A stretch of DNA of 64,000 nucleotides, taken from IMG/VR virus record IMGVR_UViG_3300047558_000077, positions 1-64,000 of that record; one strand, 5' to 3'. A program made the position numbers and the translations under genes. Below the pieces are notes generated by a model that was not told where the DNA came from, searched no databases, and worked only from the letters and a program-made list of their open reading frames with translations. Of this stretch, positions 2,308-62,704 are shown in pieces. Each line of letters starts with the position of its first letter. The stretch's first letter is position 1. Source of the DNA: a virus.

Positions 2308-3057
2308 ATGTCACTCAACAAACCCGCTAACAAAGAAGAACTAAAAGAGTTTTGCCTACGTCAGCTAGGCTATCCTGTTATTCAGATTAACGTTGATGAT
2401 GAACAGGTCAATGACGCTGTAGAACTTGCATTTGAATACTGGAATGAGTTTCATTTCAATGGCACCGAACGCACATATGTTAAACATCAAGTTACCTCTC
2501 AAGACAAAGCAAATCGCTATATCACAGTTAGCGATAGTCTAATTGGTGCAACACGAGTATTCAAAGTTGGTCAGAACAAGATGGCTATGAATATGTTCGA
2601 CCTACGTTATCAGTTGCGTCTAAACGATCTATGGGATCTATCATCAACATCATACGTAAACTATTCATTGACTATGCAGCATCTAGCAACTCTTGATCTA
2701 ATCTTTACTGGTGAGACTCCTATTCGCTTCAATCGTTTGACAGACAAACTTTATATTGATTGGGATTGGGATACTGACGTAGCAGAAGCGGAATGGATTG
2801 TCGTCGAAGGATTCATTATCACCGATCCTAATACATACACACAAGTATGGAATGATCGTATGCTTAAAAAGCTGGCTACCTCATATGTTAAAAAGCAATG
2901 GGGAACTAACATGTCAAAGTTCGATAAAATGCAGCTACCTGGCGGTGTAACGATGCGTGGTGTTGATATCTATAATGAAGCCGTCAATGATATTGAAAAA
3001 ACAGAACAAGAGATACGGAATGTTTATGAAGCGCCGCCCTCGTTCCTCGTTGGCTAG
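2308..3057 (+). CDS. gp13: Neck protein gp13
   Basis: ELKEFCLRQLGYPVIQINVDDEQ...KQWGTNMSKF..MQLPGGVTMRG, typical T4 gp13; synteny with gp14-gp19. Confidence 0.93.
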   Translation: MSLNKPANKEELKEFCLRQLGYPVIQINVDDEQVNDAVELAFEYWNEFHFNGTERTYVKHQVTSQDKANRYITVSDSLIGATRVFKVGQNKMAMNMFDLRYQLRLNDLWDLSSTSYVNYSLTMQHLATLDLIFTGETPIRFNRLTDKLYIDWDWDTDVAEAEWIVVEGFIITDPNTYTQVWNDRMLKKLATSYVKKQWGTNMSKFDKMQLPGGVTMRGVDIYNEAVNDIEKTEQEIRNVYEAPPSFLVG

Positions 3058-3123
3058 ACCCAACCAGAATATGTGGAGGTAGTAAGTTTACTATATAGTT
3101 ATATCAGGTAAAGAGGTTATGAT

Positions 3124-3789
3124 ATGACTGTATTTCACAAACACCACATTATACCAAAACATATGGGCGGAACAGATGATCCATCAAATTTGATAGAATT
3201 GACAGTAGAAGAACATGCCGAGGCTCATAGAAAGTTGTGGGAAGAGCATGGAAATGAATATGATAAGATTGCTTGGTTGAGTTTAACAAATCAGATTGAC
3301 AATGCAGAAGCAAGAATACTCGCTGTTATTGAATGGAATAAGAATAGGATCATATCTGATGAAACAAAAGAAAAAATGTCGGAGAGTTTGAAAAAATATT
3401 ATAGTGATCCGGATAACAGAAAGAAAACGTCAGACGCAACTAAAAATGGTATGAAGTCTTGGTGGGATAACTTATTAGAAGATGAAAGACAAGAGTGGAT
3501 TGAGAAGTGTAAAAAACGTCCTGAAGATTGGGTTCCACCTAAAGGATGGAAACTAAGTGAAGAAACCAAACAAAAGATGAAAGGACCGAGAGAACCATAT
3601 GGTCCACAGTCAAAAGAACACCGTAAAAATGTAAGCAAGGGGCGCAAAGGTAAAGGAACAGGCGAAAGAAACGCAATGTCTAATGAAGAAAATAGAAAGA
3701 AAGTTTCTCAATCTAAGATTGGAAGAAAGCGTGTCTATCAACCTGATGGATCGTTCAAGTATCTATTTCCTAGTGAAATAGGAGGTTAA
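3124..3789 (+). mobile_element. Free-standing HNH homing endonuclease with NUMOD3-like repeats
   Basis: HKHHIIPKHMGGTDDPSNLIELTVEEHAEAH nuclease motif and SEETKQKM-type repeats. Inserted between gp13 and gp14. Confidence 0.85.
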
Positions 3790-3790
3790 C

Positions 3791-4681
3791 ATCGCACTGA
3801 ACCGATATTTTCAAAATTTTCCTGGCAAGAATCGCTTTAACAATGAGCATAGACTCATGGAAGATGTTATTGTCGAATCGATTGAGATCATGGGTCATCA
3901 GGTTTATTACATTCCTAGAGAGTCCTTTGATAATGGTGATATGATCTTTGGTGAGTATAGCAAGTCTAAATTTGAAAAGGCTTATTCGATTGAAGCGTAT
4001 ATAGCCAATGTGGAAGGCTTTGAAGGTGATGGTGACTTCTTTTCCAAGTTTGGTCTAGAGATTAGAGATACATCCAACTTTGTAATCTCACGCCGTGCAT
4101 TTACCCGTGGTCTACCATCAGTGTTGAGAGAAAGACCACAAGAAGGCGACTTGATCTACATTCCTTTGATGCATCGTCTATTTGAAATTAAATTTCTTGA
4201 AAAGAAGCTAATGTTCTATGCTCTTGGAAACAGAGAGCCATACATATACGAAATTCGTTGTGAACTATTCCGCTATAGTCAAGAAGCGATTGATACTGGT
4301 GTTGATGAAATTGATCAGATAGAAGAAGATAACGCATACACAATGAGATTAAATCTCAATACATCCGGTCTTGGTAACTTCAAAGACGGTGAAGTTGTTT
4401 ATCAATCTTCTACAGGAAGATGGTCAGAACAATTGGCACATGCTACGGTCGGAGAATGGTATAAAGCTAACGGAACAATGTTTATCTATGGTATTACAGG
4501 TAGCTTTGCAGCAAACACAACACTTTATGGAAATACTTCACTTGCACAATATACAGTCAACAGTATCGCTGACGAAAAGAATGATTACGTTAAGTTTGAC
4601 ATATTTGATAATGAAGATTTTGACACTGGCGCAGATTTGATCCTTGATCTATCTGAAACAAATCCATTCGGGACACCATAA
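3791..4681 (+). CDS. gp14: Neck protein gp14 (probable non-canonical ATC start at 3791; first ATG at 3857)
   Basis: EGFEGDGDFFSKFGLEIRD, RPQEGDLIYIP and LDLSETNPFG motifs. In-frame extension (M)ALNRYFQNF follows SD GGAGG at 3781-3785. Confidence 0.9.
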   Translation: MALNRYFQNFPGKNRFNNEHRLMEDVIVESIEIMGHQVYYIPRESFDNGDMIFGEYSKSKFEKAYSIEAYIANVEGFEGDGDFFSKFGLEIRDTSNFVISRRAFTRGLPSVLRERPQEGDLIYIPLMHRLFEIKFLEKKLMFYALGNREPYIYEIRCELFRYSQEAIDTGVDEIDQIEEDNAYTMRLNLNTSGLGNFKDGEVVYQSSTGRWSEQLAHATVGEWYKANGTMFIYGITGSFAANTTLYGNTSLAQYTVNSIADEKNDYVKFDIFDNEDFDTGADLILDLSETNPFGTP

Positions 4682-5685
4682 TGCTAGGCAATGCACACTA
4701 CTATCATCAACTAACTCGTAAAGCAGTTGTTCTATTTGGACGGCTATTTGATGATATTAGCATCATTCGTAAAAACGACCAAACAGGGCAAGAAGTTAAC
4801 CGTTTTATCGTGCCTATCATATATTCTCCAAAAGAGAAAATGGTTACACGTTTATTCTCAGATCCTGATCTAACAAGACAGCTTCAAGCTATTCTGCCTA
4901 GAATGTCGTTTGAGATTTCCGGTTTGTCATATGATGCATCTAGAAAGCAGAACAACTTACTTAAATCATCTAAGGCACTTGCCGGAGGATCAACAGCATC
5001 TTCGGCATACATGGGTGCACCATATGATCTAAACTTTCAGTTGAATGTGTATGCTCGTAACATTGATGACGGAACGCATATTGTTGAACAAATACTACCA
5101 TTCTTTAATCCAGACTTTACAGTATCAGCAAGTATGGTTCCTGACTTAGGTTTTATCAAGGACATTCCTGTCATACTCAACAATGTGACAAATAACATTG
5201 AATATGAGGGTAACTATGATTCTGTTCGTTATGTATACTGGACATTAAACTTCACAATGAAATTACACTACTATGGTCCAGTCACAACACCTAAGATCAT
5301 TCGTACCGTTTACGCAAACATTCATAACGATGAAAATCTAAATCCAAGATATATTACTAGACTGTTGGTCGCTAATACATCTGGTCAATACAAAATAGAA
5401 GACACAGTTTTCCAGGGCAATAGTTTAAGAACAGCCAATGCACAAGGAATTGTCTTAAGTTATAGGCCAGATTCAGGTCTATTGACGCTTGGTGCAACTC
5501 AAGGAACATTTGTGGTCAACAATACTATTCACGCAGCATCAACAAATGCCACAAGTAGAATAACTTCATTCTATGAACCACCATCAAAGATGGTTGAGAT
5601 TAGAATTAGACCAGATCCAATTGATGCTGAACCTGGTGATGATTATGGTTATACGACTACAATAACAGAATGGCCTGACGCATAA
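4681..5685 (+). CDS. gp15: Tail sheath stabilizer/terminator gp15
   Basis: FGRLFDDI, VPIIYSPKEK, LPRMSFEI, YDASRK, QILPFFNPDF motifs. Confidence 0.92.
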   Translation: MLGNAHYYHQLTRKAVVLFGRLFDDISIIRKNDQTGQEVNRFIVPIIYSPKEKMVTRLFSDPDLTRQLQAILPRMSFEISGLSYDASRKQNNLLKSSKALAGGSTASSAYMGAPYDLNFQLNVYARNIDDGTHIVEQILPFFNPDFTVSASMVPDLGFIKDIPVILNNVTNNIEYEGNYDSVRYVYWTLNFTMKLHYYGPVTTPKIIRTVYANIHNDENLNPRYITRLLVANTSGQYKIEDTVFQGNSLRTANAQGIVLSYRPDSGLLTLGATQGTFVVNNTIHAASTNATSRITSFYEPPSKMVEIRIRPDPIDAEPGDDYGYTTTITEWPDA

Positions 5686-11219: not shown

Positions 11220-11241
11220 TAGTTAGACTAAATATAAGATA

Positions 11242-11267
11242 AGTCATGGGGCTTCGGTCCCATGACT
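11242..11267 (+). promoter_or_regulatory. cUUCGg-capped 11-bp hairpin just downstream of late promoter CTAAATA (11228-11234)
   Basis: AGTCATGGGGC-TTCG-GTCCCATGACT. No U-tract, so more likely a 5' stabiliser or processing signal than a terminator. Confidence 0.7.
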
Positions 11268-11294
11268 ATTCATCATGTTCAAGGAGTAGGGACC

Positions 11295-13154
11295 ATTCGC
11301 TTATTCGGCTTTCAAATTGGTGTTGACGACCAAGATAAAAAACCAGATCAATACGGTCAACCAACACAGAAAACATTTGCTATACCGCAGACAGACGACG
11401 GCGCCGTAACTGTTGCTGGCGCTGGCTATTATGGTACCTATGTTGATCTTGATGGTACATTCAGAAACGAAACACAACTTATTACGAAGTATCGTGAGTT
11501 AGCAATTCAGCCAGAAATGGAAACTGCTATTGATGAAATCGTTAATGAAGCTATTGTCATTGAAGATTCCGGCACCTCGGTAGAAATCAACCTAGACGAA
11601 CTTAAAGTTCCAGCAGGAATTAAAAGAAGAATTGAAGATGAGTTTGAACTAATACTAAAGATGCTAAACTTTGGTAATATGGGGCATGATATCTTTAGGC
11701 GCTGGTATATTGATGGAAGACTTTTCTATCACCTTGTTATCGACGAAACACAACCACAATTAGGTATTCAAGAATTAAAGTATATCGATCCTCGCCGTAT
11801 TCGTAAGATCCGTGAAATTCAAAAGATGCGTGATCCTAATACAGGCGTTGAACTAATCAAAAAGACTATTGAGTATTATCTTTACAACGAAAGAGGAATG
11901 ATTGGCTCTGGTACCAATCTAGGCTCTAAGATTGCCGTTGACTCAATTGTAAATGTTAATTCTGGTTTGCTTGATCCTAAGCAGACAATGGTGCTTTCTT
12001 ATCTACACAAAGCAATCAAGCCATTCAACAATCTACGCATGGTCGAAGATGCTACAGTTATCTATCGTCTATCTCGTGCTCCAGAACGCCGAGTTTTCTA
12101 TATTGATGTTGGTAATATGCCAACAGTTAAAGCGGAACAGTATGTCCGTGATATCATGGTCAAGTATCGTAACAAGTTGGTTTACGATTCTAATACTGGT
12201 GAAATCAAAGACGACCGCAAACATCTATCAATGCTGGAAGACTTCTGGTTGCCTCGCCGTGAAGGTTCTAAGGGAACAGAAATTTCTACATTAGAAGGCG
12301 CACGTAATCTAGGTGAACTAGAAGACGTTAAGTATTTCCAAAGCAAGCTATACAAGTCACTAAATGTTCCAATCGGTCGTTTAGAACCACAACAAGGTTT
12401 CTCACTAGGTAGAACAACAGAAATCACAAGAGATGAACTTAAGTTTACTAAGTTTGTCCAAAGACTACGTAACAAGTTTTCATCACTATTTGACGATCTA
12501 CTAAGAGTTCAATTAATTCTTAAGAATGTCTGTACCGAAGAAGAGTGGAAAGAGTTTAAAGAAGATATCTGGTACGACTATAAGAAAGATAATAACTTCG
12601 ATGAACTGAAAGACGCAGAACTATTAAACATGCGTCTAGATGTTCTAGCTAAAGTTGATCCATTCGTCGGTAAGTATTATTCTGTAGCATGGGTTAGAAA
12701 GAACATTCTACAGCAAACCGAAGAAGATATGGAAGAGATTAACGCTCAGATGGAACAAGAGAATGCTATTCTTGCTCAACAGCAACAGCAAGCAATGGTT
12801 GATCAACAAGCACAACAGCAACAGGATATGGAAAATCAGATTGCTTTTGGAGCACAGCAACAGATCGCTCAGGCACAAGTCAATAAAGAAATCGATAAGA
12901 TTACTGGACCGGATGAAGGTCCAGGTAAATCTGAAAAAGCTGGTCAAGATCATGAATCCAAGATGATGGACAAGAAAATCAAACTAGCACAGATACAATC
13001 TAAAAAGTCTGCACCAGCACCAGCAAAGAAAAAGACTGTAGCAGAACAAGCAAAAGATTTAGGTCTAGTTTATGTTGGCTCAAATAGATATGCTGATACA
13101 AGTGGTAATGTAACACATCTTACCGAAAACGGTATATTAGTTCCGACTAAATAA
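11295..13154 (+). CDS. gp20: Portal protein gp20 (probable ATT start at 11295)
   Basis: WYIDGR, YRLSRAPERRVFYIDVGNMP, EDFWLPRREG and ITRDELKF motifs. (M)RLFGFQIG N-terminus follows AAGGAG. Confidence 0.96.
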   Translation: MRLFGFQIGVDDQDKKPDQYGQPTQKTFAIPQTDDGAVTVAGAGYYGTYVDLDGTFRNETQLITKYRELAIQPEMETAIDEIVNEAIVIEDSGTSVEINLDELKVPAGIKRRIEDEFELILKMLNFGNMGHDIFRRWYIDGRLFYHLVIDETQPQLGIQELKYIDPRRIRKIREIQKMRDPNTGVELIKKTIEYYLYNERGMIGSGTNLGSKIAVDSIVNVNSGLLDPKQTMVLSYLHKAIKPFNNLRMVEDATVIYRLSRAPERRVFYIDVGNMPTVKAEQYVRDIMVKYRNKLVYDSNTGEIKDDRKHLSMLEDFWLPRREGSKGTEISTLEGARNLGELEDVKYFQSKLYKSLNVPIGRLEPQQGFSLGRTTEITRDELKFTKFVQRLRNKFSSLFDDLLRVQLILKNVCTEEEWKEFKEDIWYDYKKDNNFDELKDAELLNMRLDVLAKVDPFVGKYYSVAWVRKNILQQTEEDMEEINAQMEQENAILAQQQQQAMVDQQAQQQQDMENQIAFGAQQQIAQAQVNKEIDKITGPDEGPGKSEKAGQDHESKMMDKKIKLAQIQSKKSAPAPAKKKTVAEQAKDLGLVYVGSNRYADTSGNVTHLTENGILVPTK

Positions 13155-61930: not shown

Positions 61931-62704
61931 ATGAGCGTTGTAAAACAAACGGCAACTGCCGTGGCCACCGACGTTGATACACAGGTCGTTGACCTACGAG
62001 GCATGTGGATTGGGCTCGCCCTTCTAAATGTCTTTTATCTAATCGTCCGTATCTATGAACAGGTTTATGGCTGGCGTGCTGGTCTTGACTCGTTCGCACC
62101 AGAGTTTCAGACATATTGGATGTCTATTCTTTGGACAGAAATCCCACTAGAACTTATCTCAGGTCTTGGTCTTGCAGGTTATCTTTGGAAGACTAGAACC
62201 CGTGACTTCTCTCTTGTAACACCAAGGGAAGAAATGCGCCGTCTAGCGGTGTTGGTTCAGTGGTTGGTTGTTTATGCTGTTGCTATCTACTGGGGTGCAT
62301 CGTTCTTCACCGAACAGGATGGTACCTGGCATATGACAGTCATTCGTGATACGGATTTCACTCCGTCCCACATCATTGAGTTCTACATGAGTTACCCAAT
62401 CTACTCAATCATTGCTGTTGGTGCGTTCTTCTATGCTCGCACTCGTATCCCTTACTTTGCTCAGGGATATAGCCTAGCATTCTTGATTGTTGCTATTGGA
62501 CCATTCATGATCATCCCGAACGTTGGCCTGAATGAGTGGGGCCACACCTTCTGGTTCATGGAAGAACTATTCGTTGCTCCTCTACATTGGGGCTTCGTGT
62601 TCTTCGGCTGGATGGCTCTAGGTGTCTTTGGCGTTGTGCTACAGATCCTAGGTCGTGTCCACAGTCTCGTTGGACGAGATGGTGTAAGACTCCTTACCGA
62701 ATAA
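61931..62704 (+). CDS. pmoC: Particulate methane monooxygenase subunit C (Methylocystis/Methylosinus type)
   Basis: GLDSFAPEFQTYWM, WGASFFTEQDGTWHMTVIRDTDFTPSHIIEFYMSYP and PNVGLNEWGHTFWFMEELFVAPLHWGFV motifs. N-terminal VVDLRGMWIGLA matches type II methanotroph PmoC as recalled. Confidence 0.97.
   Translation: MSVVKQTATAVATDVDTQVVDLRGMWIGLALLNVFYLIVRIYEQVYGWRAGLDSFAPEFQTYWMSILWTEIPLELISGLGLAGYLWKTRTRDFSLVTPREEMRRLAVLVQWLVVYAVAIYWGASFFTEQDGTWHMTVIRDTDFTPSHIIEFYMSYPIYSIIAVGAFFYARTRIPYFAQGYSLAFLIVAIGPFMIIPNVGLNEWGHTFWFMEELFVAPLHWGFVFFGWMALGVFGVVLQILGRVHSLVGRDGVRLLTE

Follow-up and report, generated by a model that had tools for sequence, protein, structure and literature searches.

We have studied the start of gp14, the gene for a neck protein (head closure Hc2), in a 64,000-nucleotide (nt) stretch of viral DNA comprising positions 1 to 64,000 of IMG/VR record IMGVR_UViG_3300047558_000077; throughout the text we refer to this whole stretch as the window. 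Counted from an ATC triplet at 3791-3793, gp14 extends over 296 codons (3791..4681, on the plus strand, as are all the features of the gp13 to gp15 region given below). On the strength of sequence comparisons we consider it probable that gp14 is started at this AUC, and that the ATC is part of a mobile homing-endonuclease cassette inserted between gp13 and gp14, rather than an old regulatory feature of gp14.

The comparisons show the layout of the region, the homology of ATC to ATG, its linkage to the insert, the boundaries of the recoded tracts, the selection on codons 2-22 and the mosaic spread; from these we infer that ribosomes initiate at AUC, how efficiently they would do so, and why ATC rather than ATG persists. 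In the mechanism that we propose, the initiator tRNA would start gp14 at AUC 3791 and yield an N-terminal methionine; initiation would be driven by the GGAGG provided by the final two codons of the endonuclease gene, and ribosomes that have just terminated at the stop of that gene, one base upstream, may assist. The cassette would be built from a leader carrying a late-type promoter, a nuclease domain that is HNH here but GIY-YIG in relatives, a DNA-binding region of the NUMOD3 type, and a right end. Recoded tracts of some 80 bases in gp13 and 30 bases in gp14 would move with it. The third base of the start codon would have been changed along with the wobble positions of the gp14 tract; a much stronger Shine-Dalgarno sequence (SD) would offset the weak codon, and with few copies of gp14 needed the change would be tolerated.

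The start region of gp14

The stop codon of the HNH gene (TAA, 3787-3789) is followed by a single C and then by ATC. This ATC shares the frame of gp14, whose first ATG (3857-3859, codon 23) comes 66 nt (22 codons) further downstream. On the 5' side the gp14 frame is closed by a TAG at 3779-3781, 12 nt upstream of ATC, after which it reads GAG GTT AAC ATC; from this stop to 3857 it contains no ATG, GTG or TTG. Among the related phages described below, a canonical start between the stop and the conserved N-terminus is also missing in L001, L085, L156 and L163, all of which carry an identical TAGGAGG. The original prediction, that a GGAGG formed by the last codons of the HNH gene stands 5 nt before an in-frame ATC, is borne out by the sequence: the SD lies at 3781-3785 and is made by the final two Gly codons of that gene. 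Since GGAGG is rare (51 occurrences on the plus strand of the 172-kb genome) and here stands 5 nt ahead of the triplet that is homologous to the ATG of relatives, its presence is not due to chance. A genome-wide scan recovered, besides gp14, no real gene with an SD and an ATH triplet (ATA, ATC or ATT) at least 20 codons upstream of its first canonical start.

To compare this region among relatives, gp14 loci were collected from IMG/VR by protein and degenerate DNA patterns, from metagenome contigs, and by exact protein look-up; the resulting set contains about 60 related phage sequences, labelled L001 and so on. In the relatives that have no insert at this site the stop of gp13 overlaps or abuts the ATG of gp14 (ggcTAATGgca in the nearest ones), followed by MAINRYFNNFPG...NEHxLMED, and the TAATG junction is present in 45 of 46 insert-free ATG contigs. 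The ATC of the window aligns exactly with this ATG (45 insert-free contigs), and with the GTG of L040. The N-terminal peptide predicted for a start at ATC is (M)ALNRYFQNFPGK.

Conservation of the segment between ATC and the first ATG was assessed from the proportions of nonsynonymous (pN) and synonymous (pS) differences in codons 2-22. These are 0.08 and 0.51 between the window and L001, and 0.12 and 0.55 between L032 and L033; within lineages that have ATC or ATT (ATY) at the start position pN/pS is ~0.15-0.22 (Fisher p = 0.002-0.003). Codons 2-22 are thus under purifying selection in genomes that lack a canonical start, which indicates that the segment is translated and makes a start at Met23 unlikely. 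Against the T4 gp14 structures 9mkb and 9lu4 (E = 4e-27) the alignment of the ATC-initiated protein begins at residue 12, its residues 12-22 falling on T4 gp14 residues 32-42 in the solved neck structures.

A start at ATG 3857, with loss of the first 22 residues, is what gene callers have chosen. In public protein collections the cassette-bearing genomes are represented only by gp14 truncated to Met23 (274 and 273 aa, at window 3857-4678 and L001:3067-3885), listed as 'hypothetical protein' and found on at least 17 contigs; all the public gene calls found for this allele therefore drop 22 conserved residues of an essential virion protein. While 3857 is indeed the first canonical start, it has no SD upstream, all relatives have Met23 conserved as an internal residue, and the segment that would be deleted is under purifying selection and partly inside the region aligned to the T4 structures. 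These observations indicate that gp14 has to start at or just before ATC 3791, in agreement with what had been claimed from the sequence, namely that it appears to start at the ATC and that a start at 3857 would remove a conserved segment, and they render the truncated protein very improbable. The CTG at 3797 was considered as another start and rejected because it is not conserved (ATA in L001, ACC in L085).

The strength of the SD differs between alleles according to the start codon. In every ATY allele the start is preceded at 5-7 nt by a strong SD (GGAGG or AAGGAG; in L032 and L033 it is AAGGAG, 7 nt upstream of ATC/ATT), while insert-free alleles with a canonical start show only a weak GGTGG/GGTAGG-like sequence; among insert-bearing alleles with a canonical start a GGAG is found only in L040 (GTG), 9 nt upstream. 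The strong SD of the ATY alleles looks like compensation for the weak codon. That AUC can serve as a start is seen in E. coli reporters, where it reaches about 1-2% (0.02-3%) of AUG and the product has N-terminal Met (Hecht et al., bioRxiv 10.1101/063800). A phage-encoded initiator-like tRNA for AUC was also sought and rejected: the tRNA-Ile(GAU) and tRNA-Met(CAU) lack the three anticodon-stem G-C pairs and the 1:72 mismatch.

Linkage of ATC and ATT to endonuclease inserts

ATC occurs at the gp14 start position in independent metagenome assemblies (L001, L002, L003, L005, L006, L137; L085, L089, L091, L147; L032, L159; L163), and ATT in L033 and L156; given that more than 10 independent assemblies agree, the ATC of the window record is not a sequencing error. 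When the loci were sorted by the haplotype of their gp13/gp14 junction, 7 of 7 ATC/ATT haplotypes had a homing-endonuclease gene, or a remnant of one, between gp13 and gp14, and 33 of 33 insert-free haplotypes used ATG (with versus without insert: 7/0 for ATY, 6/33 for canonical starts; Fisher p = 3e-5). The same holds by contig: all 10 ATH contigs in IMG/VR have an insert or remnant, and so does every true gp14 match in the metagenome contigs.

The inserts of the ATC/ATT class are diverse. The window and the L001 group have an HNH nuclease with NUMOD3; the L085 group and L156 a GIY-YIG nuclease with the same C-terminal DNA-binding region; L163 a seg-like GIY-YIG; L033 another GIY-YIG/NUMOD3 nuclease; and L032 and L159 a 105-nt deletion remnant of the L033-type element. 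The seg-like open reading frame (ORF) of L163 is apparently frameshifted. Six haplotypes combine an insert with a canonical start: these are represented by L043/L044 (an HNH 93% identical to that of the window, with a TAATG overlap), L024 (an HNH remnant), L019 and L026 (seg-like GIY-YIG, ATG), L040 (GTG) and L038 (a LysM ORF). In the last of these, a more distant relative, the gp13/gp14 junction is occupied by a 216-aa ORF with a LysM-like C-terminus (L038:2351-3001), and there is no endonuclease at that place.

This distribution bears on the idea, put forward in the original prediction, that the near-cognate start is an adaptation which throttles the synthesis of a low-copy virion protein. 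The T4 virion neck is (gp13)12-(gp14)6, with six copies of gp14 (PMC9958956), the portal gene (12 copies) of the same genome also has an ATT, and ATC/ATT has been kept in diverged lineages without reversion; all this would fit such a role. As the cause of the ATC, however, throttling is unsupported: the insert-free junction types, L165 among them, use ATG without exception, the non-ATG state is perfectly linked to the insert and sits in the recoded tract that flanks it, and insert-free phages already obtain a low output through weak-SD coupling to gp13. We regard adaptive throttling as unlikely; low demand for gp14 is the probable reason that a weak start can be tolerated, but does not account for its origin.

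A near-isogenic control for the effect of the insert is provided by L165 (a Logan assembly), which is insert-free, has the TAATG junction and a gp14 in the 90% cluster of the window. The flanking DNA of the two is only 1-3% divergent, and a 734-nt insert is present in the window only. On the left side of it, 27 of 63 differences lie within the final 79 nt of gp13 (2976..3054). On the right side there are 10 differences in the first 30 nt of gp14 (3791..3820), at nt 3, 7, 9, 12, 15, 18, 22, 24, 27 and 30, almost all of them at wobble positions, with nt 3 being the change from ATG to ATC; nt 31-600 contain only 10 further differences. Separately from these tracts, a 60-nt patch in the C-terminal half of the gene (gp14 nt 604-663, window 4394-4453) holds 28 of the 49 differences between the two gp14 sequences; it is a hypervariable or mosaic segment, unrelated to the insert. 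A sharp gp14 tract is likewise seen in L001 versus L004 and L007 (binomial P = 5.8e-5 to 5.5e-4). At the 3' end of gp13 there are 9-14 differences per 30-nt bin between alleles with and without the homing endonuclease gene, versus 0-4 in the last bin among alleles without it.

The origin of ATC that we favour is hitchhiking in a tract co-converted with a super-Mendelian element, compensated by the SD. One could suppose instead that the endonuclease recognizes the empty junction, including TAATGG, and that ATG to ATC together with the wobble changes blocks self-cleavage. The recoding is dense, mostly synonymous, present on both sides of the insert and sharply bounded, the empty junction is highly conserved among insert-free phages, and the MobA/gene 60 system offers a precedent (bioRxiv 10.1101/2022.08.31.505936). 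Immunity of this kind is nevertheless rather doubtful, as L043/L044 have ATG beside an HNH with 93% identity to that of the window (and DNA identity of up to 98% over a part of the DNA-binding region, 3678-3737), L019 and L026 keep ATG despite an insert, and the recoded tract, being similar to the natural sequence of the insert-free lineage L023, may be mere donor sequence.

Anatomy, spread and decay of the cassette

The left flank of the cassette, the recoded 3' end of gp13, is followed by a leader (3058..3123) with the ribosome-binding site of the HNH gene (AGAGG, 3112-3116) and a late-promoter-like element, TTTACTAAATAG, which reads CTATATA in the window (3091-3097) and CTAAATA in relatives. 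CTAAATA occurs 30 times on the plus strand of the genome and 3 times on the minus strand, and the element presumably acts as a late-type promoter. The leader can be aligned between HNH and GIY-YIG cassettes. Next comes the free-standing homing endonuclease gene (3124..3789, 221 aa), whose product matches PF01844 (23.1 bits, cut-off 21.4) and phrog_655 (E = 2.8e-17); the NUMOD3 match of the window protein, 18.5 bits, is below the cut-off of 20.4, which is exceeded in L085, L033, L026 and L019. The right-end module, TAGGAGGCTAAC-ATC, recurs downstream of HNH and GIY-YIG nucleases, behind four different nuclease bodies, and outlasts internal deletion of the nuclease gene in L032 and L159. In the form TAGGAGG(C/T)TAA(C/A)-AT(C/T) it stands behind HNH and two kinds of GIY-YIG body, and the L033-type right end is a variant, AAGGAGAACTAAC-ATT. 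There is natural swapping of nuclease domains, HNH for GIY-YIG, within one cassette family at the same genomic site. The combination of one leader, NUMOD3-type DNA-binding region and tail with either nuclease was seen at L085:137-880, L156:178-921 (minus strand) and L040:2273-3001, compared with window 3124-3789. The HNH gene of the window is itself mosaic: its body (3046-3737) has 89-98% DNA identity to L044, while the last ~50 nt, the 5' end of gp14 and gp13 are L001-like, with a recombination breakpoint near 3740.

Some readings in which no AUC start is needed were also considered. The gp14 frame is in +1 relative to HNH, the SD-like GGAGG before the stop gives the junction a superficially prfB-like look, and the Gly codon with a stop after it is reminiscent of the take-off site of gene 60, so that a HNH-gp14 fusion by +1 frameshift or short bypass might be imagined. 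There is no slippery codon, however, GGT/GGC/AAC before TAA could not re-pair at +1, and the codons of the tail differ between cassette types. An intron whose splicing would restore ATG was rejected: no Rfam intron match was obtained at E<=1 in 2800-4100, and the ORF is flanked by just 66 nt and 1 nt of non-coding sequence. An assembly error is contradicted by the number of independent assemblies in which ATC or ATT is found. Fusion, intron and assembly error, even taken together, strike us as exceedingly improbable.

How the cassette has spread can be seen from a gp14 tree for which the first 12 residues were left out. In it, ATY alleles are polyphyletic, occupying at least 2 separate places by well-supported branches and 4 by parsimony, and they stand next to insert-free ATG sisters (L001 with L004, L085 with L113). 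The presence or absence of a homing endonuclease at one site with diverged flanks can be seen in the comparison of L165 with the window, in the tree and in the haplotypes. Where the nuclease genes have decayed, the last 35-70 nt beside the gp14 start are kept. In L032 (2897-3000) and L159 about 105 nt are left, the left 11 nt and the last ~70 nt of the element, with SD, TAA and ATC; this remnant contains a 9-codon mini-ORF with an SD-like AAGAGGAAG of its own, ending at the same TAA. In L024 (2809-3000) what remains is 30 HNH codons together with the leader and a tail that has the TAATG overlap.

Several observations weigh against an AUC-started gp14 brought in by the cassette. Many of the contigs are near-copies of one another, so that the independent events are as few as the tree indicates. 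Since L043/L044 keep ATG in the TAATG overlap with a closely similar HNH cassette, ATC is not obligatory for carrying this HNH. In E. coli AUC is 50-100 times weaker than AUG. Finally, a local hairpin keeps the SD paired for the most part in three sequences (the window, L001 and L156), and this speaks against free loading of the 30S subunit. In the window this hairpin has 8 bp (3765..3786), HNH codons AUUUCCUA pairing with UAGGAGGU, which contains the SD; over the three sequences it has 7-8 bp, and the probability of being unpaired in the SD zone is 0.14-0.26 (window mean 0.14).

The same hairpin can be fitted into a variant of the proposed mechanism that does not exclude it, namely termination-reinitiation, in which ribosomes ending at UAA 3787-3789 would open the SD hairpin and restart one base further on, gp14 being coupled to the selfish gene. 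The gap from the stop to ATY is one base in all ATY alleles (TAAC-ATC, TAAC-ATT, TAAA-ATT), the SD is paired with HNH codons in the window, L001 and L156, the L032/L159 remnant has retained a mini-ORF that ends at the same stop, and the ancestral TAATG is also a coupling arrangement. On the other hand, the hairpin is not significant when compared with shuffled sequences (z = 0.44) and is absent in L163 and L032, and, as translation of homing endonuclease genes is generally weak (PMC2988022), coupling to one of them would not be expected to yield much gp14. That AUC is used only or mainly through reinitiation is possible, though the chances are clearly below even. As a conserved regulator that sequesters the SD, the hairpin was rejected, being neither significant against shuffles nor present in all cassette types.

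With regard to identity and setting, the gp14 protein matches PF11649 with 120 bits (cut-off 25, E = 1.6e-34) and phrog_460 (E = 1.7e-79), and a search of the genome for a second copy found none, gp14 being single copy. It lies between gp13, a head-tail adaptor or neck protein (2308..3057, stop TAG 3055-3057; phrog_211, E = 1.3e-37), and gp15, the tail sheath stabiliser (4681..5685; PF16724, E = 5e-64); the order gp13-gp14-gp15 is the same in L165, whose gp13 homolog matches PF26809 (Phage_T4_gp13).

Another gene of the window, portal gp20, has a start region (11228-11320) in which an ATT at 11295 is preceded by AAGGAG at 11281-11286; the site has no endonuclease. This ATT aligns with the GTG starts of more distant relatives (L132, L104, L111, L092). 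In L097 a TAA in frame after the upstream hairpin ATG leaves ATT as the only possible start, while in the window the in-frame ATG at 11262, inside an 11-bp hairpin, stays open. The portal ATT was missed by our genome scan for SD and ATH, as it is masked by the upstream in-frame ATG. Judging from it, AUY starts seem to be workable in this phage-host system.

The source record is a complete genome of 172 kb with 40.8% GC. It carries an intact pmoC (window 61952-62677; PF04896, 354 bits) and is therefore assigned to the freshwater pmoC-phages of methanotrophs described in PMC7674155, a paper in which start codons and endonucleases are not mentioned. A nucleotide search of GenBank phages returned short HNH matches only and no close relative; the nearest named gp14 proteins are from cyanophages, at ~40% identity. 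Outside the window, ARAGORN reported 24 tRNA genes in a block and a gene resembling transfer-messenger RNA (tag AANDNVPFDYALAA) at G000:C1:75119-83779 and 125940-126300.

Significance and comparison with known systems

Beyond the annotation of this allele, the comparison with L165 provides a near-isogenic view of a selfish element that would rewrite the initiation signals of an essential neighbour, replacing TAATG coupling to gp13 with a strong SD and a near-cognate AUC. For the biology of mobile elements, it documents the exchange of nucleases while leader, DNA-binding region and right end stay the same, and a decay that preserves the part which the host gene would need. More tentatively, and with a chance that we place well short of even, cassettes that enter tight stop/start junctions might systematically capture the initiation of the downstream essential gene: ATG would give way to AUY, the cassette would supply the sole usable SD and possibly coupling, and the host gene would become dependent on it. 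The element would then be entrenched, as deletions must keep its tail (L032/L159, L024), and the recoded start may aid self-immunity. If general, this would furnish a simple rule by which mis-called starts beside endonuclease genes can be found, and a testable model of how it becomes difficult to lose such elements.

The gene itself belongs to the same family as T4 gp14 (PF11649; 9mkb, 9lu4) and has the same gp13-gp14-gp15 synteny; identity is ~30% over the N-terminal 170 residues, and the T4 protein differs in that it starts with ATG and is ~20 residues longer at its N-terminus. Among bacterial genes, near-cognate AUU/AUC starts are found in infC and pcnB of E. coli, and the sensitivity of such starts to initiation factor 3 (IF3) is a textbook inference. 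As in these two, we are dealing with a conserved gene without a canonical start, with AUY at the homologous position, a properly spaced SD, and initiation with Met expected at a few percent of AUG. In contrast to them, the AUY of gp14 varies between close relatives and goes with a mobile insert, not with ancient autoregulation, and no IF3 feedback logic is evident.

A closer parallel can be drawn with mobA/gene 60 of T4, where an HNH homing endonuclease is associated with a 50-nt translational bypass and the insert protects gene 60 from MobA (bioRxiv 10.1101/2022.08.31.505936). There as here, an essential host gene acquires an odd feature of translation from the recoded flank of an endonuclease element, with repeated insertions at one site, different nuclease families there, and remnants after loss of the nuclease. 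The differences are that the change in gp14 concerns the start codon only, with no coding gap or hop and a frame that is continuous from ATC; that the insert is intergenic rather than ORF-splitting; and that L044 argues against a protective role being required.

The free-standing seg and mob endonucleases of T-even phages are known for 'intronless homing' and for the co-conversion of flanking markers (Edgell et al., PMC2988022). The cassette resembles them in placing an HNH or GIY-YIG nuclease with NUMOD3 between conserved genes, with its own late-type promoter, presence/absence polymorphism and flank co-conversion; unlike it, the described T4 cases are not reported to swap the start codon of a neighbour or to lend it an SD from their last codons. 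What distinguishes this case from the precedents is the replacement of the start codon combined with an SD donated by the last codons of the endonuclease.

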